A DNA stretch of 64,000 nucleotides from a virus (IMGVR_UViG_3300023371_000089:1-64000), one strand, 5' to 3'. Positions 11,700 through 45,709 are shown, counted from the first letter of the stretch. Program-made: numbers and translations. Notes: generated by a model from the letters alone, not told the origin.

Positions 11700-12389
11700 T
11701 TAATATATAAACCAAGTTATACGTATGTCAGTCGCCTTAAGACATCCATATTGCTGTTCAACCAAAGTACGAATTCGACAGATTTCTCCATAAATCCTAA
11801 GAAGAAAATTGAATTTTTCCTTGAAAACATATTCATTGAAATTATCATCACCAGTTTCCTCATCATATATATGAAAACCAATATTTTGAAGAAGCCTGTC
11901 AAGTTTCCAATTTATATCCTTAAGTTCGTCAGCCTTCATTAATCTCGGCACTGTATCCAAGAAATGTTCTTTCATTTCCCCATATGCCCCAAGAAGGTCA
12001 ATAAGATAAAAATAAGAAGGTATTGATGCATTGGACGCATAATCATTATATTTTTTTACCAATTCAGGTGAAGCATCCTTAGGCATGCCAAGGTCTGATT
12101 CAATATATCCAAAATTATATTCTTTATTCAATAGGAAATCCTGAATTTCATAATCCTCCATAAAATGAGTCGTATCCTCAATATACCCAAATTCAATTGG
12201 CTCCTCACCCTCATCAAGATACTCTTTCGACATTTTCCAAGTAAGGTCTTTAGGAAATGCCCCATCTGCCTCGCAAGCAAGGTAATCATCACGACGAAAC
12301 TTTCTAAGGAGTTCCCATTTTCCACCATTACGGACCTCAATCATTGATACAACATATGTACTCATAAAACCAAATAATTTTTGTTGCAA
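11700..12389 (-). CDS. Hypothetical protein, 229 aa.
   Basis: Long ORF that closes the minus-strand early block. Confidence 0.45.
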   Translation of the reverse strand: MQQKLFGFMSTYVVSMIEVRNGGKWELLRKFRRDDYLACEADGAFPKDLTWKMSKEYLDEGEEPIEFGYIEDTTHFMEDYEIQDFLLNKEYNFGYIESDLGMPKDASPELVKKYNDYASNASIPSYFYLIDLLGAYGEMKEHFLDTVPRLMKADELKDINWKLDRLLQNIGFHIYDEETGDDNFNEYVFKEKFNFLLRIYGEICRIRTLVEQQYGCLKATDIRITWFIY

Positions 12390-12530: not shown

Positions 12531-13154
12531 ATGGCGACGGATAATAGTAATGCTATATACACAGCAGGAGAAATGCAAAATACAGGGAAGTTCAGTTTCA
12601 ACACAACGAACATCAATAACGCATCATACATACCAAGTTTAGATATGTGTCCAACAAAAGCCCAAATTACTGCAGCAGCAAAAACCGGTTATACTTTAAC
12701 AATTTCAACAGCCTATAATGCTAAACAACTTGTACCAAGCAAAGATTGGTCTATGACAAAAAACATTGGTAAACTAACAATTCATTTTTATACTAGTGCG
12801 TTAACATCAAACACAGTATTAAATGGATGGAGATATACAACTTCAACCCTCCCCTCGTTAAAATATAGCTCATTGGAAACAGGTACATCTATTTTTTATT
12901 GTTCACCAGGTACTTTAAACTCAACTTATACCACAGGTGCGACATTAACCCTTAACACAAGCAAACACAGTACATGGCCAATAGGTTCTTACCTCTGTTA
13001 TCTCGTATACATTTGTACAACTCAGACTGGTTATGCTGTATTATCTGGATATTATGAACCATCGGAAGCAAGTCAGTTAAATTCAGGAACTAACGTTGAA
13101 GCACTTAGGAACTGGTCAATACAAACCTTTACTTTTCAAGAATTTTATAGTTAA
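12531..13154 (+). CDS. Ser/Thr-rich beta-rich protein (possible fibre tip or receptor-binding-type moron). It is an isolated plus-strand gene.
   Basis: 207 aa with 30% or more S/T/N/G. It has its own AT-rich upstream region and ends at a strong terminator. Confidence 0.5.
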   Translation: MATDNSNAIYTAGEMQNTGKFSFNTTNINNASYIPSLDMCPTKAQITAAAKTGYTLTISTAYNAKQLVPSKDWSMTKNIGKLTIHFYTSALTSNTVLNGWRYTTSTLPSLKYSSLETGTSIFYCSPGTLNSTYTTGATLTLNTSKHSTWPIGSYLCYLVYICTTQTGYAVLSGYYEPSEASQLNSGTNVEALRNWSIQTFTFQEFYS

Positions 13155-13231: not shown

Positions 13232-14050
13232 TTAAAATCGTCTAATCTTATCCAAATATCCCTCAGATAATTCAATGATATTTGCTTTGTTAGCAAGAGA
13301 TTTAATAAGAAGTTGATTATGAAGAACAACAATAATTTGCACTGTTTGTGATGCATCAACCAAAAAATCCCTCAATGCTGCAAGATTATCCACATCAAGC
13401 CCCTCATCAGGTTCATCCATAATGAAAACCGCTTTCTTTGGGAGTGTATCATCATTAAAACCGTCAATAGCCTCTTTCGTTTTCTCAACAGCCTTTGTCC
13501 ACATATCATTCATCGGTTTTTTAGGAAACAAAGAATCTTTGGTATATACCCCCATTTTTTCATTGGCCTCAATGATTGCCATTTTAAGCGTATTTATCAT
13601 TCTCTGTCCTTTGCTCATTTTTCCTTCAGAAAAAAACTGTGCAAAATCACGGAAATTTTGAAAATTGTAACCGCCTCTCTTATTTTTCACACCCGTATCA
13701 TCCATTCTATGAACAGGAGCATCATAATCATTGACAATTCTGAACATATCCTGCGGCTTATAAGCGGGGTCAAACCCTGATGAATCAGGATAAAAAATCT
13801 TTACATCATCCCAAAACGTATATTCATTATTGAGGCCACCACGAGCAAGCGTCAACCTTGTTATTATATCAACCAATGTCGTCTTACCACAACCGTTTTC
13901 ACCAATAACAAGATTCAACCCCGGTGTAAACTCAATCTTCTTAGGAAGAAGTTTTCTTTTTTTCTCATTTTCATCCTCACTAAGATAATAATAGTCATTA
14001 ACACTATTCTTTGCCTTATAGTTAATTTCAAGTGTTTTAATCATAATCAA
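13232..14050 (-). CDS. Small ABC-type (RecF/SbcC-like) ATPase, 272 aa.
   Basis: Walker A GENGCGKTT, signature-like SEGKMSKGQR, Walker B/D-loop VFIMDEPDEGLD and H-loop VVLHN. Its start overlaps the stop of the pol-C gene (ATGA). Confidence 0.7.
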   Translation of the reverse strand: MIMIKTLEINYKAKNSVNDYYYLSEDENEKKRKLLPKKIEFTPGLNLVIGENGCGKTTLVDIITRLTLARGGLNNEYTFWDDVKIFYPDSSGFDPAYKPQDMFRIVNDYDAPVHRMDDTGVKNKRGGYNFQNFRDFAQFFSEGKMSKGQRMINTLKMAIIEANEKMGVYTKDSLFPKKPMNDMWTKAVEKTKEAIDGFNDDTLPKKAVFIMDEPDEGLDVDNLAALRDFLVDASQTVQIIVVLHNQLLIKSLANKANIIELSEGYLDKIRRF

Positions 14051-15597
14051 ACTGCATTATACTCACTAATACTCTCAATAAGGTCTGATAATGTCATAAG
14101 AACATATTCAGGGTACTTCTTTGAAACAAAATTTCCTGTCTTAGGGTCAATATCAGCAATTGCCGATATGCTCTTAGGTATATCCCCATCTTCAGCAAAT
14201 GCTACTTTTTCATCATATGGCAGGGCTTCAAACGCCTCATTGAATGCATTACGAATTTCATTAATACCCTTTTCCTCTTCCTCAGCCATTCTCCTATCAT
14301 AGTCAGCCACAATTTCCTCCCAATTCATAGAACATTCATCAATGAAAGGAATATCGAACTCAGGATGGGCTTTCCAAAAACGAATCTCCTTATCTTCCAT
14401 TGTCATCAACTGTTCATATGTATCTTGGTCGCCTTCCTTATTAGGTTGTCCCGAAGTAAGTACTGATTCTTCCTCGGTAAAATATGGACGGTCCTCAGGA
14501 TTGGTAATAAGAATACGTGTTCTAATATCTTTCGAGAAGCATACAAGAAGAGGTGTGATTCTCTTATTGAACATGTCAATATACTTTGCTGAATTATATT
14601 CCTCACCTTCCTGACAATATACATCTGTTTCAGAATCAACAATATTCTGTGGAAGAAGTCGTGCGTTAAGAATAATCTCATCCTCTTTCTGAGCATATGG
14701 ATAGGCCTTTGTTAAGAATTCATTCATTGTAAGGGACTTGTCCTCTTTCTTATGCGCCTTGAACTCCTTTTCAATTTTAGTGGTTACATCCACCTTCTCG
14801 TGTTCACCGTTTGATAAAGTCTGATATTCATAATATTTAGCCACTTTCTTGACATCAGCCTGTGACTTGCTTTTACCTGTATTTACATAATACAAAGTCT
14901 CACCCTGCTTGACATCAAGCCCTTCCTTAATTGCCAATTCCATCCATGCCTGACGTGACTTAGGCCTACCTGCCTTAGTAAGCGTCTTGCAATCCTTAAT
15001 ATAATCTTTAATGTTCTTTTTTACCTTACCCTTGGATGCAATATCCTTAAGCGGAATCTGATAATTGTATATCTTTTCTATATAAGAATAATATTCATCC
15101 AAAAATCCTGAGCCATTGTTCTGCAGAAGCAACCTGATACCTTTTTCAAGAAACTTTGAAATATATATAGGCATTTTCTTGGATTTAATGGTATTACCGA
15201 CAAGTTTCACATCATTAGGAAATGGATTTTCCGGGAAATAATCTGCGTAATTTTTACGTGAGAAGTTGATGGTCGAATCAACAATCTCATCTATGCCGAG
15301 TCCCATCTTTCCTCGCATATAAAGGTCATTGAACTCAGCGACATCGGCCTTGAAACCTGTATATTTTTGCCCTTCTACGACATTTCTATTTAGTCCTTTT
15401 CCAATGTAAGGGTTTTCGTCAGTATAACGATACTCTGACGGGAGTTTGAAGTTAAATCCGTCAGTATTTGAGATTACATTTAGTCCCAACGCATTTACAA
15501 TTGTACCATCACATGAAATATCATAAACGTAATCATCTGTTTTTCCCTTTTTCTCTACTTTAATCATATTAAAATATTTTTCATTAAGTTTTTGCAA
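14047..15597 (-). CDS. Family-B DNA polymerase C-terminal half. It comprises a split-intein C-fragment (IntC), then palm motif C (TDG), a KxY-like motif and the thumb domain. The probable start is the second ATG at 15567.
   Basis: From M11 the protein reads MIKVEKKGKTDDYVYDISCDGTIVNALGLNVISN followed by TDGFNFKL...SRKNYADYF. The first 34 aa resemble DnaE-type IntC (MIKIATRKYLGKQNVYDIGVERDHNFALKNGFIASN). The following TDG completes the YGD|TDG motif C whose first half ends the ORF at 20196-22730. Confidence 0.8.
   Translation of the reverse strand: MQKLNEKYFNMIKVEKKGKTDDYVYDISCDGTIVNALGLNVISNTDGFNFKLPSEYRYTDENPYIGKGLNRNVVEGQKYTGFKADVAEFNDLYMRGKMGLGIDEIVDSTINFSRKNYADYFPENPFPNDVKLVGNTIKSKKMPIYISKFLEKGIRLLLQNNGSGFLDEYYSYIEKIYNYQIPLKDIASKGKVKKNIKDYIKDCKTLTKAGRPKSRQAWMELAIKEGLDVKQGETLYYVNTGKSKSQADVKKVAKYYEYQTLSNGEHEKVDVTTKIEKEFKAHKKEDKSLTMNEFLTKAYPYAQKEDEIILNARLLPQNIVDSETDVYCQEGEEYNSAKYIDMFNKRITPLLVCFSKDIRTRILITNPEDRPYFTEEESVLTSGQPNKEGDQDTYEQLMTMEDKEIRFWKAHPEFDIPFIDECSMNWEEIVADYDRRMAEEEEKGINEIRNAFNEAFEALPYDEKVAFAEDGDIPKSISAIADIDPKTGNFVSKKYPEYVLMTLSDLIESISEYNAV
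15466..15567 (-). other. Split-intein C-fragment (IntC, 34 aa), immediately followed by the +1 Thr of the C-extein.
   Basis: The MIK...VYDI...N-Thr pattern matches IntC of naturally split inteins. Confidence 0.7.
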
Positions 15598-15801
15598 AAA
15601 TAAAAACTATTTTTCTTTTTTCCAAATATATTTTTTGGGAATGATATACAAGTTACACTAAAAATGCCATAAATAACTGAAGTCTATACGAAAATGTCTG
15701 GACTTTTTATGATATTTATTAAGAAAAAGTAGTATGAATTTACAATACGTTACTGCTAAAAATGTTAGAAATAATTTTTATAGTGAAAAATAAATATATA
15801 T

Positions 15802-16152
15802 ATGGAAAACCGAAATATAATACAACATCTACGTGGAAATTCACCATTATCAATTGGTAAAGCTAAAGAAATAGGAATGCTCCAAGGAGAAATTGCCATT
15901 AAACATGGTGTTAGCGGAGACTCAGAACTTTATGTATTATCACAAGATGGTGAAGCATTAGATATATTTGTTCCCAAATCGTATATTGATTCAAAACTGT
16001 TTTATGGTACACAGGCAGAATACGATGCGGCATATGCTGCTGGTAAAATTGCAATAGGCGCAATTGTTGTCATTATAGATGATGAAGAAAACACAAATGG
16101 CGCTTCATCTAAATTAGGTGAGGGTGTAATTGGAGAAATGATTTTAGAATAA
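15802..16152 (+). CDS. Small tail-fibre-associated protein with a phage-tail-repeat-like N-terminus.
   Basis: IQHLRGNSPLSIGKAKEIGMLQGEIAIKHGVSGDSELYVLSQDGEALDI follows the same hLxG...L..GEIA pattern as the N-terminus of the fibre protein at 54373-56067. Confidence 0.5.
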   Translation: MENRNIIQHLRGNSPLSIGKAKEIGMLQGEIAIKHGVSGDSELYVLSQDGEALDIFVPKSYIDSKLFYGTQAEYDAAYAAGKIAIGAIVVIIDDEENTNGASSKLGEGVIGEMILE

Positions 16153-16167
16153 AAAATAAATAAAGAG

Positions 16168-17031
16168 ATGATTTTATATATTAAAGGTGCTAATTTTTCA
16201 GCATCAAATATAGGAACACTTAGCACTTATATTGTGCAAAAAACTATGGGTGCAGGTATATCGCACAATATTCCTAATTTTATTAATAGAAACGAGGAAA
16301 ACGTAGTATGGACTGTTACATTATCACAAGATTATATATTTGGTGAATATAGTATTGTTATGGGTGGTGAGGTAATAGAACCAAATATTCAAGATAATAT
16401 TATGACTATAACAATTCCAGTAGTAACCAATAACATCAGTATTTCAATTGCAAGCATTTATGAAAATAATGGAGATGGAAGTGATGGACAAGAAACAGTT
16501 ATATTGTTAAACAATAATGTTAATTTCTCAGATTTAAGTGTTTCATCATATGGTCCTACTCAAGGTACAGGTGGTTCTTCATTCGTAGAAAGATGTGCTC
16601 TTTCAGGAGGTACATATGTAGATTATGTTGATTTTTATGTTATCACACCTAACAAAACTTTCCCTAGCGAACCTATAACTATTCCATATATTAAACTATA
16701 TTTTGTGGATGCTGAAACAGAAACTGTCGAAGAATTAGTATATGACCAAGCAAATCAATCATCTATTTTATCTGATACTACCGAAACAAATGGTTATCAA
16801 ATTATTAGATGTCCTATTAAACGTACATTGCAAAAAAATATTCATCTTGGTATTACAGTAAATGAAGGTTATAGTGATTATTCATCATTGTATACTATCC
16901 CTTATGTAAATTATACGACTTCTAATAGTATACTTGGTAAACCTTATTTTGGTACAACAATTGTTTTGGGACAAACAGTTGCAGGAAAAACTGCTAATTA
17001 TTATTGTCCTATGGTAATTTATGGTTATTAA
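16168..17031 (+). CDS. Putative tail-fibre or structural protein, 287 aa.
   Basis: Beta-rich and S/T/N/G-rich, in the same plus-strand fibre cassette. Confidence 0.5.
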   Translation: MILYIKGANFSASNIGTLSTYIVQKTMGAGISHNIPNFINRNEENVVWTVTLSQDYIFGEYSIVMGGEVIEPNIQDNIMTITIPVVTNNISISIASIYENNGDGSDGQETVILLNNNVNFSDLSVSSYGPTQGTGGSSFVERCALSGGTYVDYVDFYVITPNKTFPSEPITIPYIKLYFVDAETETVEELVYDQANQSSILSDTTETNGYQIIRCPIKRTLQKNIHLGITVNEGYSDYSSLYTIPYVNYTTSNSILGKPYFGTTIVLGQTVAGKTANYYCPMVIYGY

Positions 17032-17063
17032 AATATAATTTTTTTCAAAAAAAAATAATTGAC

Positions 17064-18182
17064 ATGGGTTATACAAAACAAGGGTTTGTGAAGGGAATGA
17101 CATTAGAGCATACTCACCTTATTAATATGGAAGATGGAATAATAAGTGCTTCACAAGGAGGTGTAGAGGATATTTATGCATCGTCATATGGTGTAGTACC
17201 TGGTGTTGTTGATATGAGTAAAATGAATGAGTTATTATCAGCAGCCAATGGCAAAACTATTAGGTTTAATGATGGTGAATATATTTTTCCTTCGCATATA
17301 ACAGTCCCTTCTAACATATCATTTATCGGAAACACTAAAACCATATTTAAATTATCAAGTGATAGTGCATCTAATATTCTTTTTTACATCGTTGGTTCGA
17401 CTAATGTGACAATTTCAAGAATGTTTATTGATGGCGGGGCATCTAAAGTGCAACCTACGGGTAATGTCGATGATATTCTTGATAAAACAAATTCAGGCAA
17501 TCGTTATGGTATTTGGTGTGAAAAAACCAGACGTGTTAAAATTACTGATGTTGATGTTTTAGGATGGGACATGTGTGGACTATATTGTGCAGACAACGAT
17601 TCAGGAGGGGGTGAATATGGCCGTTTCTTCCATACTATAGAAGTGACACGTTCTAGTTTTTATTTTAATTATTATGGTTTGTGGTTTGCTCAATATGGCG
17701 AATATAATCAGGTGGAATGTTGTAATTTTGGTGACAACTTTATTGGTGTTCTAAATGAAGGTGGAAACAATATGTATGTTGGCAACATGTTTTGTAACAA
17801 TTATTGCGGTTTTGCTTTGAATGGGGACGGAATTACTAACGAGTCACACGGAGGCTGTTATAGTTGTACTTACAACCATAATTCAATTACTGGATTAGGT
17901 GGCGGTGTTGCAATTTACATGAATAAAAGCACCGTTGGATGGAATTTTACGGGACAAAATATTTGGTATGGTGCTGTTACATTAAAAGATTGTAAAGGAG
18001 TTATATTTAATGGAAATATTTGGGGTAATGTTCAATTTACAAGTACACATTCAGAAGGATTAAAAAATCAAAATATGGTAACAAACACATACTTCCATAC
18101 CAACCCAAGTGCGGTGTTAAATGGAAATGATGGTTCGACATTTTTTGGACCTTATTTACCTGGGGGTGTGGTTAATGAATAA
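17064..18182 (+). CDS. Putative tailspike or depolymerase with a right-handed parallel beta-helix (pectate-lyase-like) signature. Start taken at the ATG at 17064.
   Basis: Repetitive G-x-N/I-x-I/V turns, for example NISFIGNTKTIFKL, NVTISRMFIDGG, VKITDVDVLGWDMCGLYCADND, NGNIWGN. Confidence 0.5.
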   Translation: MGYTKQGFVKGMTLEHTHLINMEDGIISASQGGVEDIYASSYGVVPGVVDMSKMNELLSAANGKTIRFNDGEYIFPSHITVPSNISFIGNTKTIFKLSSDSASNILFYIVGSTNVTISRMFIDGGASKVQPTGNVDDILDKTNSGNRYGIWCEKTRRVKITDVDVLGWDMCGLYCADNDSGGGEYGRFFHTIEVTRSSFYFNYYGLWFAQYGEYNQVECCNFGDNFIGVLNEGGNNMYVGNMFCNNYCGFALNGDGITNESHGGCYSCTYNHNSITGLGGGVAIYMNKSTVGWNFTGQNIWYGAVTLKDCKGVIFNGNIWGNVQFTSTHSEGLKNQNMVTNTYFHTNPSAVLNGNDGSTFFGPYLPGGVVNE

Positions 18183-18220
18183 CCACACCCCATTTTATAA
18201 AACAATAAAAATAACAAGAT

Positions 18221-20104
18221 ATGGCAACATTTTATATACAATTATCCGATAAATTGCTTAAAATAGGTGATGATGTAACTAAAGAAACAATTCATAAGGC
18301 TTTGGGGTATACTCCAAGTAGTTTTTCGGGTAATTTTAATGATTTGACTGATAACCCATTCGCAATTACTGATGATGGGGAATTTAATATTGTTGACGAA
18401 AATGGTAATATAGTAGCAAAATTCGATGATAAAGGTCTGCACGTTATTGATGTTGAAGTTATTTCTGAAGATGGTATTCATAAACTTTCTAATAAAGTAG
18501 ATAAAAATTATGTAGATAATCTAATTTTTAATGCTAATGAAAATTTACCTTTTAAAGAAGATGAATCAGGCTCTTTTGATATTGCGGATTTAAATGGTAA
18601 TATAATTACCAGCATAGATAGCAATGGTGTTTCTTCTGTAGAATTTAATGCACGTGGTCATAAATTAACTGAAAAAATTGATAATAATATACTTGAAAAC
18701 CGTTTAGATGATTTAACAACAACTAATTTTTCTTCAGGAGAATATGTTGATATTACTCTTAAACAAGAGAAAGGACGCATTACTAATGTTAAAATTAGTG
18801 ACACTAAGTTATCAAACGCAATTAAAATTGATGAAGACCCCGCATTTCAAATATCCGATAACAAAAATAACATTGCATTTAAGGTTGACGAAAAAGGGGC
18901 CGAGGCAGTGGAATTTCGTGCAGGTAAACATTATCTTACTAATAAAACGGAAAGAACTTACGTTGACAATGAACTTTTAAAACTTCGAGTTGATACTCAA
19001 AAATCGATAGGGAATATTAAGTTTTCTGACTTAACTGAAAATCCATTTAACGATTCAGAGGAAGGTACTTTAAAAATTGTCGATAATAAGACTAATATAA
19101 TAGTAACTATAGATAACAATGGCGTAACTTCAACTGAGTTTATTGCAGGAAAGCATAAATTAACTGAAAAATCAGATTTAAATTATGTAAATAATAATTT
19201 TTTAAACATCAACACTTCAGTTGGCACATTAAAAGACAATATCCAAAATAATGAAAAAAATATATCATCTTTAAGTGATGATGTAGAAACTTTAACAAAT
19301 GAAGTTTCTTTAAATACATCTGCTATTACTGAATTGCAAAATATAAAATATGCTTCTTCATCAAGTAAAGGTGGTGCGGCTGATAGTGTGGCTAATGCAC
19401 TAACAATTAAAGCAGGGTCAAGTAAAAACTTTAGTATCGACATTTTCAATGGTAGTTCTGTGACAACAATACCGCTACCAACAAAAATTAGTCACCTTGA
19501 AAACGATTCTAATTTAACTGATGACTTTAACGATGAATTTCATATTATTGATAATGAGGGCAATAAAATTGCGACATTTAATAATTATGGCTTATTTGTT
19601 TCGAAAGTTACAACTGTAGAACCTATAATTTCTCAAGATTTTATTGCAGGAGAACATAAGTTGTCCAATAAAGTTGATAAAAATCATATCGGTGATTCAG
19701 TTAAAAATGTTTTATTAACAACAAATGATTTAACCAATGAAGAAAAACAAACAATTAGAAATAACATAGGTTCTGTAAATAGTTTTGAACAGTATAGTAG
19801 TGATGGAGGAATTCTTAACGAGGAACAGTATAGAATAATGTCAAAATATTTATATACCCCATTTATGATTTCTTCTAACAGTGTGACTACAATACCAGAT
19901 GAATTATTGAATGAAAGTAAAACAAATTTTTTCTGTGATTGGTGTTGGAATATAATGAGAATAACAGGTGGTGAACCAATAGTTGTAGTTGAATGGGACG
20001 ACTATGATAACCCAACTAAGTTTAAAGGTCTTTTGAATGGAGTTACATATGTAGTCAATCGCACTAATTGGACCATTGCTCCTGAAGACTATTCGGGGGA
20101 ATAG
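18221..20104 (+). CDS. Tail-fibre protein carrying five internal repeats of about 75 aa.
   Basis: Repeats of the form ...F.I.D.NGNII..ID.NGV.S.EF.AG.HKLT.K.D.NYV.N... For example: EFNARGHKLTEKIDNNILENRLDDL, EFRAGKHYLTNKTERTYVDNELLKL, EFIAGKHKLTEKSDLNYVNNNFLNI, DFIAGEHKLSNKVDKNHIGD. Confidence 0.6.
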   Translation: MATFYIQLSDKLLKIGDDVTKETIHKALGYTPSSFSGNFNDLTDNPFAITDDGEFNIVDENGNIVAKFDDKGLHVIDVEVISEDGIHKLSNKVDKNYVDNLIFNANENLPFKEDESGSFDIADLNGNIITSIDSNGVSSVEFNARGHKLTEKIDNNILENRLDDLTTTNFSSGEYVDITLKQEKGRITNVKISDTKLSNAIKIDEDPAFQISDNKNNIAFKVDEKGAEAVEFRAGKHYLTNKTERTYVDNELLKLRVDTQKSIGNIKFSDLTENPFNDSEEGTLKIVDNKTNIIVTIDNNGVTSTEFIAGKHKLTEKSDLNYVNNNFLNINTSVGTLKDNIQNNEKNISSLSDDVETLTNEVSLNTSAITELQNIKYASSSSKGGAADSVANALTIKAGSSKNFSIDIFNGSSVTTIPLPTKISHLENDSNLTDDFNDEFHIIDNEGNKIATFNNYGLFVSKVTTVEPIISQDFIAGEHKLSNKVDKNHIGDSVKNVLLTTNDLTNEEKQTIRNNIGSVNSFEQYSSDGGILNEEQYRIMSKYLYTPFMISSNSVTTIPDELLNESKTNFFCDWCWNIMRITGGEPIVVVEWDDYDNPTKFKGLLNGVTYVVNRTNWTIAPEDYSGE

Positions 20105-20164
20105 CATAGACCCCGAAGATACATCAACTAATGATGAAAATGAAATCATAGAAGGAGAATAAAC

Positions 20165-20189
20165 AAACCCAGGATTTTATCCTGGGTTT
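20165..20189. terminator. Bidirectional terminator between the convergent fibre gene and the pol-N gene.
   Basis: aaacccagga-ttttat-cctgggttt, a perfect palindrome followed by a T-run. Confidence 0.65.
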
Positions 20190-20195
20190 ACTTTT

Positions 20196-22730
20196 TTAAC
20201 TATTTTTTATCATTTTCTTTACATATTGGAGACCTGCAACAATGGTTTTCGAGTACGTAACCCCCTCCTTATAATTCTCCATGAACGAATCGTAGAAAAT
20301 CTTCATATTCTCCTTTGTTGTATTGAAAATAACGCAGTTTATCTTGCCATTAGGATTGTTTGCCGCATCAATACCAATTTGTTTCCAATCATCATACGGG
20401 AAACGCTTCTGATTAAGCCCCTTTATCTCGCCCTCATAATACTCCAATTTCGTACTTTCATTTATCTCACTTGGTTTAATCTTAACCTTATCAGAATTGA
20501 AGAGGCTGTGGTCCTCAGTTACTTCCACCCTCATATCACCCTCAGAAACCTCGTATATTGGCTTATCGCACCCATGACGATAAATGTATTCAGGTGAAAC
20601 CCAACCACTTCTACAAAGCACTTCAAACGGCTTTTCTGAATAATCGTATTCCCTACCAAGTTCATCTACTTTAATAGCAAATGGATTGATAAGCGTTTCA
20701 ACAGGAAGAATGTCAATCAGCCCACTATTTTTCCAACGGATAAATAATGGCGTGTCAGGAGTGAAAGAGTCACCAACGATAGGTTTATAGCCAAGACTAT
20801 TAAAGTGAGAAATCATAAGGCGAAGGCACATACGACCTGTACATGTTGTCCTCTCAGCACATATCTTGCTTCCCCATGGAAAAAGATTCTCGGCCCCGTA
20901 TGACCCGAAAAAGCTATTACCTAACACCTTCATTTGAAGCTGTTTTTTATCATTTGCTGATTCCTCTTTTTCCACCAATTTCAATTTATCTTTTAACTCA
21001 TTAAGTTCATCATCACTACCACTAAAGTTTTTTATACGTTCTTTTAGTTTATCTATTTCTTTTCCTGCTTTTTTCTTAAGTTTCTTATATTTCTCACGTT
21101 CAGTAAGCACATATTCAAGGAACTTAAGCATTGAATCCATAAGGTCTCTACCATGAGTAATTCCCCATGTAAGAATAATTGACGGATAAAGTGAGTTAAA
21201 GTCAAATTTCGCAACATTATCAACAAATCCTACTGTGAGAAGTCTTGAGAGACCACCTGTAAATGTTCCACCTTCACCGAACTGTGGGATTGCGAGACCG
21301 TTTTCATATGACCAAGCAAGCATCAAACTTTTCCACTGTCCCGCAGTTCCCATTGTACAACATTTCTGGTATGGGACCGGTAGCATTTTACATATAAGAA
21401 AATTGGTTGTATTGTAACGATGTTCTACCTTATCACATTCCCAAAGGTCATCAAGAAGATAACGTTCAACAATGTACTTTCCTGTGGTAGGTAAATAACC
21501 GGCCTTAATTGGTTTATCTTCAGTTACTTTATACCAATCACCATTTTCATTATTCAATGCATATGTGTTAACAGTATCATTCCATGTATCTGAAATCTTG
21601 TCACCCGGTACATAGACACGGTTAACCTTTTCCATCTTTGAATACTTGGTAACGTACTTAAGGTCAGCCTTAAGCATATTACTGTCAATTGCCTGAGCGC
21701 GTCTTACCGCATGGAGAGAATCTGTCACAATTATTCCCGGAACGATTGTCTGCTTGAACTGTTCCACCTCACCACCAAGTTTAAGGACTGTATCCTTGGT
21801 ATTCTTTCTAATAACATCATCACCAAACATTTTCATCTCCTCACAAATGTACTCAATTGGATAGTCAAGTTGTTCACATCTTGTGATAATGAAGTTCCAG
21901 TCGAAGTTTTCTCCATTATGTGCCGTAATGACGTCAGGATTAAAATATTGAATCATTGAAAGGAATACCTTAATGTTGTGCAACTCACTTGCATCACGTT
22001 CTTCCTTTGTGTTTCCTGTTACTGTGAGGATGCGTTCAAAATCAACTTTTTTACCCTTATACATCACAGGACGATTAAAACGCACACCAATCTGATTGAT
22101 TCTATTATATCGAGGGTCGAGGCCTTCAGTCTCCAAGTCGAATATCATCCTCAAGAGTTTATCATAATCTTCATACCCCTTAAAGAATCGTTTTCCTGTG
22201 GATATCATGAACTGTTCCTGTGGAGTTACCACAAGATACTGTCTTTCATCTGCTTTTGAAACGAAATTCTCATTTTCCTCTTCTTCTGAGTTATCATCAG
22301 CCTTTGATTTCGAATATAAAGGGTTTTCGGCTTCTTTAAAGAATTTTGAAAATCTCTGATATGACATCGGCCTTTTTGCATAGAACATGAAGATATAGCC
22401 ATTGTCAGCGATTTCGGGAACCACTTCACCTTGATTATTCTTTGTATCAAGGACTTTTATGCCAATTCCAAATTCACGCATTAGGCGTTGCACTTCAGAA
22501 CGGTCTCCATTGCAAAGTTTCTCACAGGCTCTTCGTGTTGCCCACACGAATGGACGGAATGGTTCCATCTTGTAGTGTTTAACGTCATTTGCGTCCCTGT
22601 AGAACACTTTTATTTTATCTTCATTGTACTTATATTCAAGATTTACGATACGTTCCTGAGGGTCGGTACCATTAATAAATGAATTGATTACATCGGTCGT
22701 AATCTCTGTTTTTCTCTGAGGTTCAAGCAT
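20196..22730 (-). CDS. Family-B DNA polymerase N-terminal part (exonuclease, palm motifs A and B, first half of motif C) fused to a split-intein N-fragment.
   Basis: Exo I FDLETEGLD, motif A DFNSLYPSII, motif B KVLGNSFFGSYG. It then reads ...GYKPIVGD followed by SFTPDTPLFI (Hint block A) ...VEVTEDHSLFN (block B TxxH). The ORF ends with TAA at a terminator, without the second half of motif C or a thumb domain. Confidence 0.85.
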   Translation of the reverse strand: MLEPQRKTEITTDVINSFINGTDPQERIVNLEYKYNEDKIKVFYRDANDVKHYKMEPFRPFVWATRRACEKLCNGDRSEVQRLMREFGIGIKVLDTKNNQGEVVPEIADNGYIFMFYAKRPMSYQRFSKFFKEAENPLYSKSKADDNSEEEENENFVSKADERQYLVVTPQEQFMISTGKRFFKGYEDYDKLLRMIFDLETEGLDPRYNRINQIGVRFNRPVMYKGKKVDFERILTVTGNTKEERDASELHNIKVFLSMIQYFNPDVITAHNGENFDWNFIITRCEQLDYPIEYICEEMKMFGDDVIRKNTKDTVLKLGGEVEQFKQTIVPGIIVTDSLHAVRRAQAIDSNMLKADLKYVTKYSKMEKVNRVYVPGDKISDTWNDTVNTYALNNENGDWYKVTEDKPIKAGYLPTTGKYIVERYLLDDLWECDKVEHRYNTTNFLICKMLPVPYQKCCTMGTAGQWKSLMLAWSYENGLAIPQFGEGGTFTGGLSRLLTVGFVDNVAKFDFNSLYPSIILTWGITHGRDLMDSMLKFLEYVLTEREKYKKLKKKAGKEIDKLKERIKNFSGSDDELNELKDKLKLVEKEESANDKKQLQMKVLGNSFFGSYGAENLFPWGSKICAERTTCTGRMCLRLMISHFNSLGYKPIVGDSFTPDTPLFIRWKNSGLIDILPVETLINPFAIKVDELGREYDYSEKPFEVLCRSGWVSPEYIYRHGCDKPIYEVSEGDMRVEVTEDHSLFNSDKVKIKPSEINESTKLEYYEGEIKGLNQKRFPYDDWKQIGIDAANNPNGKINCVIFNTTKENMKIFYDSFMENYKEGVTYSKTIVAGLQYVKKMIKNS
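20199..20768 (-). other. Split-intein N-fragment (IntN) plus a C-terminal tail of about 65 aa. The N-extein is 20769-22730 (654 aa).
   Basis: The Ser1 codon is at 20766-20768, directly after the GD codons. Confidence 0.65.
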
Positions 22731-22854
22731 AAATTTTAAATTATATTTAATTGTTATTTTTGGTAAGGTTAAACCATAATCACTATGGTATCATTTACCA
22801 CCATATAATAATATATGTGCAAATATAGAAATAAGGTTTGAATAAAACAAAAAT

Positions 22855-23492: not shown

Positions 23493-24221
23493 CTATATTA
23501 TCATTTCATAAATTTCTAAAATTGCAGATGGTGGGATATTATCTTTGGTATAAACTCCATAACTATAATTGGGGTCAAGATAGAAATCAATGTTTTCAGG
23601 AATCTTACTTACATCAATTATTAACAAACAATGCTTATCCTCGTCCTGTTTTACGGTTTTAAGTTGTTTTGTAAGGCTGTATATATCATCAGGAGGTGTA
23701 TCTTCAACAAATAGGTACACTCGTTCAGGATAAGAGAATAGTGGGTTTTTAAATCTCGGTGATAAACCTATTTTACTAATCTTTTCAACGTTCTTTTCGG
23801 AGGTAACATGATATATTCTATCCATACTCCTTACATACTTGTTTACATCATCCTGATTTTTAGGTTCAAAGTTAAGATATACCCAATTATCAATATACGG
23901 ATAATCATTTTCAACAGAACAAAAATAGCCACATAAATCCATTGCTTTCTTCACTTTGTCAATGATGTTCTCATTGTTAGGTATGATTACACGAAGTTTT
24001 TCAACTTTGTTATTACTGAAAACCTCTATCTGACTATCATCAAAATCATATAAATCAATGATATATTTTCTCGTTTTCTCTATTGGATAGGTTCTAATTA
24101 GGCCTTCCTCCAAGAAATTTCGTTTTTCATGAATCGCAATGGAAAGAGGGTTTCCATAAGAAAAATTCTCAATCACCCCTCTTTTCTCATTCCATTTCTT
24201 GATTATCCGCTTGCTAATCAT
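23493..24221 (-). CDS. Hypothetical protein, 242 aa.
   Basis: Long ORF. It is not the missing Dam N-terminal half, as it has no FxGxG. Confidence 0.45.
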   Translation of the reverse strand: MISKRIIKKWNEKRGVIENFSYGNPLSIAIHEKRNFLEEGLIRTYPIEKTRKYIIDLYDFDDSQIEVFSNNKVEKLRVIIPNNENIIDKVKKAMDLCGYFCSVENDYPYIDNWVYLNFEPKNQDDVNKYVRSMDRIYHVTSEKNVEKISKIGLSPRFKNPLFSYPERVYLFVEDTPPDDIYSLTKQLKTVKQDEDKHCLLIIDVSKIPENIDFYLDPNYSYGVYTKDNIPPSAILEIYEMII

Positions 24222-27204: not shown

Positions 27205-27420
27205 CCATTGCAGTCAACTACACCCACCTAAAGGAGGGTGCTTGACACTGCCTCGTTAGAGGCATGTCGATTGGGAGGTTGACTGCTCCCTGCCTGTAAG
27301 GATAACCAATTGACCTTCAATTGGTAAAAAACTCGATACAGGGTGGTTGGACCTTTGTCCGATATTAATCGCAGCATTCCAATCTGAGTCAAAGACAACT
27401 CCGTCAACGCAGATATATCT
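27205..27420 (-). ncRNA. Putative omega-RNA/reRNA scaffold of TnpB. It overlaps the tnpB 3' end and the right-end hairpin. The guide would derive from flanking DNA around 27205-27220.
   Basis: The position matches characterised IS605 TnpB systems (3' end of tnpB plus the right end). Structured elements include ccaattg-acctt-caattgg (27306-27324) and the right-end hairpin. Confidence 0.3.
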
Positions 27421-28583
27421 GCGACCACGGCGCTCTCCATCACGATTATTGGTGCGACAATCCATCTGACTTGTATACATCGGAGAAACTGTTTCCACCT
27501 GCTTGCCCGCAAGTGGTGCCTTGTAAGTCAATATACGTTTAAATTCATAAAATGGAATCTGAGATAAAGCATTGTTATGCTTCGCTCTCTTGTACCCCTC
27601 ACTGGTACGTGAAGTTTTCTTTTTAATCTTTGTGAGGTCTTCCATCACAATGATGGAAGCATTTGTACTATTAATGAGTACTTTACTTGCACGATAACAC
27701 ATGTCCTTAGAGAGGTTGCGTTCCTTGTTGCGAACTTTCTTAAGGTGGCGCTTTGCTGATTTGGTACCTTTCTCTTGTAGTTTACGCTTAAGATAACGGA
27801 TGTCCCTACGCTTCTTAAGATATGTTGTATCTTTAAATGCCTTACCCTCTGAGGTAACAAATATCATTCTTGCACCGAGGTCAACACCTATGCACTCCTC
27901 AGAATGTAATGGTTTTTCAGGTACTTCGAAGGGTACTGAAAGGAAGAAATTCCCGTTTCTATAGAATATTGTAGGGTCATATGCCTTATAAGTACTAAGC
28001 ATTTCTTTTGCCTTAGGATAGACATTAAAAGGTACGAAAGTACGTTTGTTTTTCTGTGCCCCAGTAATGGTTATTCCTTCAGATGTAAGCACTCCGTAGA
28101 GGCGTTTATCGAGGGTCATTGTTAATGATTTTCTCTGTGGTACTTCAGCGTTCTTATGTTTGTTTGCTTTAATTGATTTCAAAGCAGACGCTGCTGCTTG
28201 TTCGCACTTGATTACCATCTGTGAAGATAAAGCAGGAAACTCTGTCCTAATTACGTTATAACACGCCTCGTGTACTTTTTTAAGTGACAGTGTTATTTTG
28301 TTATCATGTAGAATACGTGTACACCTATTGTACGCATCTCTTGCACATACAAGAAGATTGTACCAATGCGTTGCATTGGTATCATCCATTATTAGAGGTA
28401 TGTTATAGGTTTGTACAATCATAGCATTCACGTATGTGATTTCTATATATAAATATTATAATAAATTAAAAAGTTTTATTTTTTTTTAAAAGTTATATAT
28501 TTACATTAAGAAAATAATGTTTAACCAAAAAGGGTTTAATCGTAGTTCCTCTCCACCCTAAAGGATGGAGTTTCCCTACGATA
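27221..28583 (-). mobile_element. IS200/IS605-family insertion sequence of the tnpB-only (IS1341-like) type. There is no tnpA.
   Basis: A TnpB ORF flanked by subterminal hairpins with similar loops. The right end at 27221-27240 reads CACCC-acctaaagga-GGGTG. The left end at 28551-28570 reads CTCCA-ccctaaagga-TGGAG, nested inside atcgtag...ctacgat (28538-28583). No Y1 transposase ORF fits between the ends. Confidence 0.65.
27256..28431 (-). CDS. tnpB: TnpB (IS605 OrfB family, RuvC-like RNA-guided endonuclease).
   Basis: RuvC-I IGVDLGARMIF, RuvC-II SIIVMEDL, RuvC-III FDSDWNAAINIGQR. The Zn finger is incomplete (2 Cys). The N-terminal domain is typical of this family. Confidence 0.85.
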   Translation of the reverse strand: MNAMIVQTYNIPLIMDDTNATHWYNLLVCARDAYNRCTRILHDNKITLSLKKVHEACYNVIRTEFPALSSQMVIKCEQAAASALKSIKANKHKNAEVPQRKSLTMTLDKRLYGVLTSEGITITGAQKNKRTFVPFNVYPKAKEMLSTYKAYDPTIFYRNGNFFLSVPFEVPEKPLHSEECIGVDLGARMIFVTSEGKAFKDTTYLKKRRDIRYLKRKLQEKGTKSAKRHLKKVRNKERNLSKDMCYRASKVLINSTNASIIVMEDLTKIKKKTSRTSEGYKRAKHNNALSQIPFYEFKRILTYKAPLAGKQVETVSPMYTSQMDCRTNNRDGERRGRRYICVDGVVFDSDWNAAINIGQRSNHPVSSFLPIEGQLVILTGREQSTSQSTCL

Positions 28584-44995: not shown

Positions 44996-45709
44996 ATGTT
45001 AAAAGATTTTAATAATATCTATGACGTAAACGCAGGATATTATTTTAAAGACATAACAAACACTAAGCCCTTAACAAGGGCTGAAGAAAGAAGACTCTCA
45101 AAAAGATGGAGAGAAAAAAAAGATGTAAATGCACGAAATAAGTTGGTTCAATCAAATCTGAAATTCGCTGCAAATATTGCGAAAAATTATAAAGGGCTTG
45201 GATTATCATATTCTGATTTAATTCAAGAAGCGAATGCAGGGCTTTTTAAGGCTGCAGATAAATTTGAACCTGAACTTGGTAATAAATTTATATCTTATGC
45301 AGTAAATTGGATTAGGGAGTCGATATTATCAGCCCTTAAGAAAAGAAATTCTCTCCCCTCAGAAGAATTGCCTGTTGAATACAATGAATTGGAAACCTAT
45401 GAGGAGGCTGATTACATTGATGAAAAAATGAGTGATGATATCTACATTGAAGATAACTCTGAATCTGAAAGAGAAAAGGATATTAATACAGTTGTAAACC
45501 TTCTCTTAAAAGATTTAACCCCAAGAGAACAATTCATTGTTACTAAATATAGCGGCATTGGTGAACGCAAGCCTAAAACATTAGAAGAAATTGGAAATGA
45601 ATTGGGATTAACTAAAGAACGAGTTAGACAGATATATGAAAAAGCAATGAAAAAACTACGTGTTTCGGCACTTGAGAATTGCTTTTCTAAAGATATTTAT
45701 AAAAGATAA
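44996..45709 (+). CDS. Sigma-70 family RNA polymerase sigma factor.
   Basis: Region 2 LVQSNLKFAANIAKNY...YSDLIQEANAGLFKAADKFEPELGNKFISYAVNWIRESI. Region 4 HTH TLEEIGNELGLTKERVRQIYEKAMKKLR. Confidence 0.85.
   Translation: MLKDFNNIYDVNAGYYFKDITNTKPLTRAEERRLSKRWREKKDVNARNKLVQSNLKFAANIAKNYKGLGLSYSDLIQEANAGLFKAADKFEPELGNKFISYAVNWIRESILSALKKRNSLPSEELPVEYNELETYEEADYIDEKMSDDIYIEDNSESEREKDINTVVNLLLKDLTPREQFIVTKYSGIGERKPKTLEEIGNELGLTKERVRQIYEKAMKKLRVSALENCFSKDIYKR

Follow-up and report, generated by a model that had tools for sequence, protein, structure and literature searches.

The viral DNA stretch IMGVR_UViG_3300023371_000089:1-64000 (hereafter the window: 64,000 nucleotides, one strand, positions counted from its first letter) carries a family-B DNA polymerase gene split into two halves, and a cassette of four genes on the opposite strand occupies the gap between them. 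Two minus-strand open reading frames (ORFs), polN (20196-22730, 844 amino acids, aa) and polC (14047-15597, 516 aa), flank four plus-strand ORFs, g1 to g4, which together span 15802-20104. The original prediction had placed four plus-strand genes in this gap; the ORFs are found there, and all four have homologues. GC skew turns positive over 16-20 kb and is negative to the left and right of it, so that the change of sign marks exactly the g1-g4 block. This change of strand and skew at each border would be the argument for an assembly chimera, in which the cassette had been mis-joined to the polymerase locus. Against it, proteins identical to polN, g3 and g4 occur on at least 23, 26 and 21 contigs, respectively, from independent samples and assemblers; one of these is 349,824 bp long, and on another, an independent ENA contig of 26.8 kb, the gene order is unchanged. 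An assembly artefact is thus extremely improbable, and because 100% identical proteins recur on more than 20 independent contigs, the arrangement is genuine and stable. The source is probably a jumbo phage of about 350 kb, and its host probably belongs to the gut-type Bacteroidota, as judged from the type of promoter and from g3 homologues in contigs of metagenome-assembled genomes (MAGs) assigned to Bacteroidales.

The polymerase assignment of polN comes from matches to Pfam DNA_pol_B_exo1 and DNA_pol_B and to PHROG 262. Residues 1-654 of polN and 45-516 of polC abut exactly in intact relatives of 1119-1160 aa (tblastn, and collinear in blastn), which read ...YKPIVGD/TDGFNFKLP... across the break (slash), inside polymerase motif C (GD/TDG). 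Compared with these intact proteins, the window has 190 additional residues after IVGD, starting with SFTPDTPLFIRW, and a short additional piece before TDGFNF, ending in ...DYVYDISCDGTIVNALGLNVISN. Read along the minus strand, the locus thus consists of an N-extein (20769..22730; the N-terminal 654 residues, exonuclease and palm up to ...IVGD), a putative intein N-fragment (20196..20768; 190 aa, polN residues 655-844, plus stop), the gap, a putative intein C-fragment (15466..15567; 34 aa, MIKVEKKGKTDDYVYDISCDGTIVNALGLNVISN) ending in Asn followed by Thr(+1), and a C-extein (14047..15465; the C-terminal 472 residues starting TDGFNFKLP, stop codon included). Both exteins are collinear with intact relatives, and both intein fragments are missing from them. 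The junction at which the original prediction had located a split-intein site within the replication gene is therefore real: IVGD/TDGFNF in intact relatives against IVGD-S[intein N] and [intein C]...ISN-TDGFNF in the window. The mechanical start of the polC ORF, a TTG at 15597, falls within a conserved -7 promoter box, and the true start is probably the ATG at 15567 (MIKVEKK...), giving a protein of 506 aa that includes the 34-aa intein C-fragment. ATGATTAAAGTAGA is kept as the polC start in the relatives L012, L015 and L023, and the 506-aa form is the one called in L012.

Several properties support the reading of these fragments as a split intein. The insertion is in frame, at a conserved site, missing from close intein-less homologues and spread over two ORFs, and the two halves keep the same order and orientation, each with its own intein fragment. 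The boundary residues comprise Ser1 (Ser655), a block B motif VTEDHS whose T84 and H87 are invariant in 12 homologues, a C-terminal Asn and Thr at +1. A profile of these 12 N-fragment homologues matches PDB chain 9hth_A (E 1.6e-4), a 173-aa chain deposited as 'DNA-directed DNA polymerase' that we take to be an intein, and the TFIIB chains 5o9j and 5o9i (E ~0.01), which are mini-intein structures. The 34-aa C-fragment resembles that of Npu DnaE in length and opening (MIK...). The N-fragment is made of a core of about 105 aa, which contains block B, and a less conserved tail of about 85 aa. In relatives with an extein identity of 61-82%, the core (residues 655-760) reaches 81-93% (e.g., 89% against 64% in P0032), while the tail (761-844) is only 36-92% conserved among the polN homologues P0002-P0120 and carries no recognisable domain. 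The polymerase halves are presumably rejoined by protein trans-splicing.

Comparison with relatives, viewed over about 10 kb around each polymerase, shows what this gap holds elsewhere. A protein search with polN returned many split proteins of 824-860 aa (58-100% identity) and many intact ones of 1122-1138 aa, together with a third size class of about 910-936 aa (P0060-P0073, P0075, P0078-P0084) that covers 51-61% of polN at 59-66% identity and may represent a different split position or domain architecture. Split relatives lacking the cassette were found in seven further lineages (L012/13, L015, L016, L017, L019, L023, L025, L027), at 60-95% polN identity. In every sampled split relative the gap holds one or more same-strand homing-endonuclease genes or another passenger gene, and in none of them does it hold the cassette. 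Thus polN and polC are separated by a single 561-aa gene in P0010 (82% polN identity), by genes of 561 and 502 aa in P0005 (83%), by one gene of 388 or 394 aa in P0012 (81%) and P0025 (75%), by genes of 561, 250 and 503 aa in P0032 (69%) and by a 554-aa gene in P0074 (61%). In P0077 (60%; L027/L028), polN is followed by a 565-aa gene and then by unrelated genes (225 aa, 193 aa, IMPDH...), with no polC within 8 kb, and the two halves seem to be already uncoupled.

The endonuclease-type gap genes all lie on the polymerase strand, are mutually homologous and carry DUF723/DUF4379/CapR zinc-finger repeats; such domains are known as DNA-binding modules of phage homing endonucleases (PMC10448857). 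In six split lineages (60-83% polN identity) they lie directly after polN and match PHROG HNH/homing-endonuclease families, with E-values of 5e-137, 2e-107 and 1.5e-76, and a homing-endonuclease gene is present between the halves in L012, L015, L017, L019, L023, L025 and L027. Relatives often carry further free-standing DUF723 endonuclease genes (L017 2016-2951, L023 149-1507, L025 4556-6007, L011 12493+). In the window, searches with the endonucleases of eight relatives (tblastn) and with Pfam and PHROG revealed no endonuclease-like ORF or remnant, either in the gap or in the whole 64 kb. The closest split relative lacking the cassette (P0002, L016; 95%) differs again: 13 nt past polN it has a same-strand gene that is neither an endonuclease nor part of the cassette and is 66% identical to a 250-aa passenger of L023. 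This passenger (L016 4250-4942, L023 12285-13037) is distantly related (E 3e-5 to 3e-10) to a 242-aa gene of the window without family assignment, located just upstream of polN (23493-24221, minus strand). At the other end of the range, P0026 (L011) is an intact, intein-less polymerase 95% identical over the extein, and it is followed directly by the AAA/SMC gene that in the window comes after polC.

Beyond these relatives, no GenBank phage was matched by megablast of 13-23 kb, tblastn of g2 and g4 gave nothing, and tblastn of polN recovered distant Salinibacter phage polymerases only. Scans of IMG/VR yielded no match for g4 and none for the g3 family; with polN they returned only intact polymerases of about 60% identity, with no cassette within 10 kb of them. 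A separate peculiarity is seen in L017 (~13930-13960), L019 (~13985-14005) and L025 (~12350-12375; also L026), where the C-fragment ORF stops after ...SN/TDG; the conserved GFNFKLP... picks up again in L017 beyond a TAA in the same frame, and in L019 and L025 in the -1 frame. The start chosen by gene callers comes about 22 conserved codons further on; polC of the window is uninterrupted. Either read-through or -1 frameshifting, or a further break of the polymerase in which splicing adds only 'TDG' to motif C, would account for this pattern.

The borders of the cassette coincide with regulatory elements of the fractured gene. On the left, a promoter-like block for polC (15590..15636, minus strand) is composed of a -33 TTTG (15626-15623), 20 nt and a -7 TATTTTTG (15602-15595). 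The 47-nt block AAAAAATATATTTGGAAAAAAGAAAAATAGTTTTTATTTTTGCAAAAA (15636-15590, minus strand) is near-invariant in the window, L015, L023 and L012 despite differing DNA upstream of it. TTTG-20 nt-TATTTTTG agrees with the Bacteroides-type -33/-7 promoter consensus. A Bacteroidetes-type promoter-like element, TTTG-N20-TATATTTG, also lies upstream of polN (22820..22851, minus strand). Matches to TTTG-N17-22-TAnnTTTG number 12 in the window, where shuffled sequences give 2.5+-1.5; all 12 are on the minus strand (sites include 22851-22820, 15626-15595, 12418-12387, 24638-24607, 6147-6117 and 33446-33416), and there are none in the plus-strand blocks (the cassette, 12531-13154, 42-51 kb). This distribution hints at two transcription regimes in the window. 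A sigma-70-family gene is located at 44996-45709. Beyond the polC block, an AT-rich leader specific to the cassette (15637..15801, plus strand), presumably the site of the g1 promoter, shows no homology to relatives, the full 204-bp left spacer having a GC content of 20%. It contains a direct repeat, CTAAAAATGnnAnAAATAA, at 15658 and 15756; this sequence gives three matches against 0.5 expected, a weak excess, and no motif shared by the regions upstream of plus-strand genes was detected by eye. A scan for sigma-70-type promoters gave matches no commoner than chance, and such promoters were rejected as candidates. Of the divergent promoter region that had been proposed as the left border, the polC side is thus borne out by a conserved promoter-like block, but the g1 side is not, as no promoter could be recognised there.

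On the right, a hairpin at 20165..20189, between the convergent g4 and polN, has a perfect 11-bp stem (-16 to -17 kcal/mol on either strand) and T-runs on both strands, as expected of a bidirectional intrinsic terminator. A terminator hairpin occupies the corresponding site behind polN in L017 and L019 (AAGAAACCCATTATAATGGGTTTCTTTTT), two relatives with endonuclease genes in the gap, and because of this correspondence, the element is most readily understood as a polN terminator that works in both directions. The perfect palindromic terminator ascribed to the cassette is therefore real in its stem and T-run, but does not belong to the cassette in particular; since it is the only clear terminator and is common to polN, describing the cassette as self-contained was an overstatement. 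A second, GC-rich hairpin (18163..18191, plus strand; 12 bp, -22 kcal/mol) overlaps the g3 stop codon, is followed by ATTTTATAAA and may act as an internal terminator or attenuator that sets the g3:g4 ratio. DNA homology to split relatives extends up to the polN stop (20196-20202), or, with L017 and L019, through the hairpin to about 20160, and resumes at 15636. As homology is lost only between the polN stop or terminator and the polC promoter, the segment unique to this phage appears to be the endonuclease slot only, about 15637-20160. A transposon or integrative element was considered as carrier and rejected, there being no recombinase or transposase among g1-g4 and no meaningful repeats at the borders.

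The best characterised gene of the cassette is g3 (17064-18182, plus strand; 372 aa), whose start at ATG 17064 agrees with the homologue consensus MxYxKQGF, while the mechanical ORF starts at TTG 17004. Structure prediction on the 17064-18182 product (AF2, 30-sequence alignment) gave a long series of short strands with pLDDT 88 and pTM 0.85, and Foldseek returned 70 PDB matches at E<=1e-3. These include the Vibrio polysaccharide lyase RbmB (E 6.6e-8), adenovirus LH3, GH28 polygalacturonases, alginate epimerase/lyase and phage tailspikes (Fri1 gp49, phi29 gp12, CBA120 TSP3, Sf6 and APK16); identity to solved structures is just 10-17%. The model thus confidently predicts a right-handed parallel beta-helix, as had been anticipated. 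The further description as pectate-lyase-like stands at the level of fold, but g3 has no match to a pectate-lyase family in Pfam, where its sole match is a chance-level Bflower_3. On the sequence side, g3 falls in a PHROG 'tail protein' family (E 4e-8), tblastn matches Sinorhizobium phage tail proteins of NosD-like type, a Pfam Beta_helix domain is present in one homologue, and K64, R67, R156, E213, H262, H272 and D356 are invariant. The fold makes g3 a candidate tailspike or polysaccharide depolymerase. It has the same right-handed fold as the beta-helix tailspikes Fri1 gp49 (6c72), CBA120 TSP3 (6nw9) and phi29 gp12 (3suc), and the cassette resembles such tailspike/depolymerase modules in its logic of conserved N-termini and variable C-termini and in its movement between phage backgrounds; g3 is short in comparison, and a location inside a replication gene is unusual. 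A 178-kb Bacteroidales MAG contig (SUYN01000004.1, L031 2665-10382), which may be a binned phage, has three ORFs of about 820-844 aa in tandem. At least two of them include a beta-helix domain like that of g3 (42% and 67% identity), so that the domain has evidently been shuffled into larger spike proteins.

In the product of the last and longest gene, g4 (18221-20104, plus strand; 627 aa), the N-terminus is conserved and the C-terminal part of about 90 aa is orphan; the protein also has five repeats and a heptad-like segment. Many proteins of 457-950 aa begin with a region 46-58% identical to its N-terminal ~100 aa; homologues have the repeats in a looser form and are at most 38% identical overall, and no match was found past about aa 540 among 5.8 billion proteins. 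Some homologues carry Phage_fiber_2, SASA esterase or GDPD domains. Self-comparison of g4, with diagonal scores of 107/103/83 against a maximum of 47 in 50 shuffles, upholds the number of five repeats predicted, but not the uniform tandem units of about 75 aa: the five divergent copies have cores of 51-64 aa (about 55 aa), are spaced by 60, 90, 75 and 167 aa, and only four are in tandem, the fifth being set apart by a non-repeat heptad-like insert. The copies follow the consensus ..PF..DE.G.F.I.DN.GNII...D..GV.S.EF.AG.HKLT.K.D.NYV.N, with an HKLxxK motif at aa 87, 147, 237, 312 and 479; at the DNA level no tandem repeats exist, and the repeats are evident in the protein only. This anatomy of conserved N-terminal attachment, repetitive shaft and orphan tip corresponds to the usual type of receptor-binding fibre, a role predicted here from sequence.

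The two upstream genes are less distinctive. g2 (16168-17031, plus strand; 287 aa) has 242 homologues, mostly aligned to residues 1 to about 105 only, which sets a widely shared domain of about 100 aa at the N-terminus apart from a variable one at the C-terminus. The AF2 model (pLDDT 87) shows two beta-sandwich domains; Foldseek against the PDB gave nothing at E<=1e-3, with weak matches to CBM-like structures, and BFVD matches are mainly uncharacterised phage proteins with a few named tail proteins. g2 is thus beta-rich, as proposed, but at most a candidate fibre. The small g1 protein (15802-16152, plus strand; 116 aa) shares its C-terminal 53 aa (57% identity, E 3e-17) with the end of a 243-aa protein heading the same module elsewhere (L029:8399-9130). 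The phage-tail-repeat N-terminus attributed to it was not recovered: the match to Pfam Phage_tail_C is sub-threshold and at residues 68-76, and the conserved part is C-terminal. No paralogue of g1-g4 is present elsewhere in the 64-kb window.

The same genes recur in other phage backgrounds. On L029, a 51-kb contig with a primase-polymerase, the gene for the 243-aa protein precedes one resembling g2 (32%), one homologous to g3 (71%) and one that shares the N-terminus of g4 (40%), while in L020 and L021 (202-kb and 107-kb contigs) the order g2-like gene, g3 (80%) and g4-N-terminus gene recurs outside any polymerase gene. There, the neighbours are a tail-fibre-type protein with Mtd_N, a lysozyme, PhoH and Band_7. 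Since g3 is 80% identical to that of the window in L020/L021 while the adjoining Band_7 is only 35% identical, the module appears to move between phage backgrounds, and because the gene order recurs in unrelated ones, g1-g2-g3-g4 can be regarded as a portable receptor-binding, i.e., host-range, module. g1 shows no similarity to the L020 Mtd_N protein or to a 94-aa gene of L020, and Mtd_N is undetected in g1 even at E<=10. Structural-type genes of L020 (7109-7567, 11210-12007, 12571-13602) contain in-frame TAG codons, for example MAIYTI*LKRGKA... in an Mtd_N protein, which suggests that this jumbo phage uses TAG recoding. Recoding was rejected for the window phage, where TAG read-through adds at most 18 codons to any ORF.

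It could be argued instead that g1-g4 are non-structural, encoding soluble glycan-degrading or surface-modifying enzymes, or accessory or defence-related proteins, that share only folds with tail proteins. Such a reading could draw on the location of the block in a replication region, far from recognised structural genes, on the non-phage lyases and hydrolases among the top structural matches of g3, on g3-like domains in MAG contigs assigned to bacteria, and on g1, g2 and g4 having no significant match to a curated family (Pfam, PHROG). We consider it unlikely, given the PHROG 'tail protein' match of g3 and its matches to annotated phage tail proteins, the architecture of g2 and g4, in which a conserved N-terminus is joined to a variable or orphan C-terminus, as is typical of receptor-binding proteins, homologues with collagen, Phage_fiber_2, SASA or GDPD domains, and the Mtd_N protein adjoining the module in L020. 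The idea of a host-range-type module fixed in the gap of a replication gene at a split-intein site is thus sustained, as a coherent receptor-binding-type module sits exactly in the polymerase gap.

The comparison of related genomes tells against another part of the original prediction, that fracture of the polymerase and acquisition of the fibre module were linked events. In that scenario, insertion of the fibre cassette itself would have fractured the polymerase, intact or already bearing the intein, in a single event, which would agree with the position of the cassette exactly between the intein halves and with the 95% identical intein-less allele, a sign that the state of the locus changed recently in this lineage. 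This is very unlikely. The split at the same residue and a homologous intein occur in many lineages, down to about 58% identity, with sampled gaps that lack the cassette; the position of the polN terminator and the polC promoter block are common to endonuclease-bearing relatives; and g4 is confined to this phage, the module order being met elsewhere outside polymerase genes. The split appears, from these comparisons, to predate the cassette and to be far more widespread. The finding that the original prediction had named as its refutation is essentially at hand, with split polymerases that lack the cassette and a cassette order that other phages have away from polymerase genes.

Altogether, the findings lead to a model, which we consider probable as a whole, in which the polymerase was split first through intein/endonuclease mobility and the cassette came later, as cargo in place of the endonuclease. 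A mobile split intein in motif C would have caused the polymerase to be made as two polypeptides, each with its own promoter-like element, and the ancestral gap would have held one or two same-strand free-standing homing-endonuclease genes, as in relatives. The endonuclease slot alone (~15637-20160) would then have been replaced, by recombination, with the four-gene module in opposite orientation, leaving the intein without an endonuclease. In the present state, host-type promoters would drive separate transcripts of polN and polC, whose products would be joined by trans-splicing. The module would be transcribed in the other direction from the 165-nt leader, past the hairpin at the g3 stop, to the terminator also used by polN. 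It may belong to a different, likely late, temporal class, as suggested by the phage-encoded sigma factor and by the fact that no plus-strand gene has the host-type promoter pattern.

There are signs in the sequence that the intein locus is mobile and recombinogenic. Relative to the intact L011, DNA identity is 93-99%, falling to 78-79% in about 150 nt on each side of the intein site; the flanking sequence looks co-converted, the drop in identity being that expected from homing. Relative to L016, the mid extein is 97-100% identical at the DNA level and the intein 87-93%, and the intein C-fragment with its promoter is 95% identical to L015, whose extein is about 80% identical. Genetic exchange between phages is known to have boundaries at homing-endonuclease sites (PMC10448857). 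These mosaic identities would fit either a local replacement or the import of an intein-plus-cargo unit from an unsampled donor.

The second of these possibilities, that intein N-fragment, cassette and intein C-fragment arrived as one unit, the swap having happened elsewhere, deserves attention, although we give it only a modest chance. The unit would have hitch-hiked by homologous recombination or co-conversion, with conserved polymerase flanks serving as homology arms and the gap as a portable cargo slot. The divergence of the intein from that of L016, against a near-identical mid extein and with different gap content, the fall to 78-79% only beside the insertion site in the comparison with L011, the closeness of C-fragment and promoter to L015 in spite of a divergent extein, and the family-wide conservation of the intein above that of the extein all speak for it. 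Conversely, no donor with the same intein-cassette unit was found among the contigs, all cassette contigs representing the same phage, and a unit without an endonuclease has no active homing drive. Arrival as one unit is a refinement of the model of split first and cargo later, not its opponent.

Several points weigh against the proposed model and its components. The intein ends in SN, with Ser in place of the usual penultimate His (this Ser is kept in all three relatives examined, L017, L019 and L025); the Pfam Intein_splicing match is sub-threshold (E 0.011, 15.9 bits against a cut-off of 35.8); NCBIfam intein models give no match to the intein of the window; and trans-splicing is itself deduced from sequence. 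A virion location of g1-g4 is derived from fold, architecture and neighbours only, g1, g2 and g4 being outside the significant reach of Pfam and PHROG families, and the evidence from L020 and L029 covers the module locus, not the state of the polymerase genes of those phages. In the leader, no g1 promoter was recognised, nor any TAnnTTTG on the plus strand. The window has no endonuclease remnant, so that replacement is argued from comparison rather than from a scar, and the divergence of the intein from L016 could mean that intein and cassette came together from an unsampled donor.

The closest known systems are the fractured genes described by Dassa, London, Stoddard, Schueler-Furman and Pietrokovski in 2009 (PMC2677866), in which a split intein divides phage DNA-metabolism genes and the two halves enclose a free-standing homing-endonuclease gene. 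The window shares with them the collinear, same-strand halves of a replication enzyme, each with an intein fragment and separate control elements, and its relatives show the exact fractured-gene layout, with DUF723/HNH-type endonuclease genes. It differs in that its gap holds, instead of an endonuclease, 4.5 kb of four opposite-strand structural-type genes. The locus would thus be a fractured gene in all respects except the missing defining endonuclease, and what is new appears to be the cargo in its place. The same study proposes, as a later step, that loss of the endonuclease leads to uncoupling of the halves. By analogy, the window fits the stage after this loss, on the way to the state of Nanoarchaeum PolB or cyanobacterial DnaE, and L027/L028 may represent a further stage of uncoupling. 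No literature report of structural-gene cargo in a fractured-gene gap was found, in searches that were not aimed at such cargo; the gap genes of PMC2677866 are endonuclease genes.

Other split polymerases offer partial parallels. The Pseudomonas jumbo phage vB_PaeM_MIJ3 (PMC6892783) has a split PolB with a split intein and an HNH gene (orf154) between the halves. The likeness, drawn by motifs only, extends to a family-B polymerase in two ORFs of a jumbo phage, the Ser start of the intein, a ...VTEDHS... block B and a VYDI-type block F; the MIJ3 intein ends HN/S and its locus keeps the HNH gene, whereas the window has SN/T and the fibre cassette. In Nanoarchaeum equitans PolB and cyanobacterial DnaE (cited in PMC2677866), an essential polymerase is made from two genes through a split intein, with no endonuclease nearby; there, the halves are far apart and fixed in the lineage, whereas those of the window are 4.6 kb apart at a locus that is polymorphic (intact, endonuclease-bearing or cargo-bearing). 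In T4-like Aeromonas phages (Petrov & Karam; Edgell, cited in PMC2677866), PolB gp43 and NrdA are split into intein-less, non-covalent subunits. As in the window, the polymerase gene is broken by an insert (2-3 kb, possibly with a homing-endonuclease gene), the difference being that there is no intein.

The remainder of the window is a replication and nucleotide-metabolism region, with a primase, an SbcC-like protein, a sigma factor, methyltransferases, ClpP, Band_7 and TnpB. Genes of TnpB/Cas12f-like (OrfB_IS605) and IS1595-type transposases are found close to the polymerase locus, in the window at 27256-28431 (minus strand) and in several relatives (transposase-type genes at L011 8354-9991, L015 5176-6105 and L023 4504-5424). 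A 2449-aa minus-strand ORF at 56637-63986 reaches the window edge.

The origin of split inteins and the drift of the halves have so far been argued mainly from end states: cyanobacterial DnaE, Nanoarchaeum PolB and metagenomic fractured genes. The polymerases compared here form a natural gradation at a single site of a single essential gene, running from the intact gene through gaps with one endonuclease gene, two such genes, a passenger gene or a four-gene module to non-adjacent halves, and the value of the locus lies in this series of states, as a natural intermediate in split-intein evolution, more than in the cassette itself. The family also supplies many natural variants of a Ser1/Thr+1 split intein with cysteine-free splicing junction residues, and a receptor-binding module with a beta-helix candidate enzyme and an orphan fibre tip, from jumbo phages that probably infect Bacteroidota. 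A fractured gene in which each half has its own promoter and terminator could evidently accept large, unrelated, opposite-strand cargo in its gap, and the phage is seemingly unharmed by it, since it is found in many samples. It is tempting, if rather speculative, to extend this to a general cargo slot, whose contents would travel with the intein between co-infecting jumbo phages through the readily recombining intein halves and highly conserved polymerase flanks. If so, late transcription of the module, antisense to the polymerase, would run head-on into polN, and the exchange of host range would be physically coupled to an essential replication gene.

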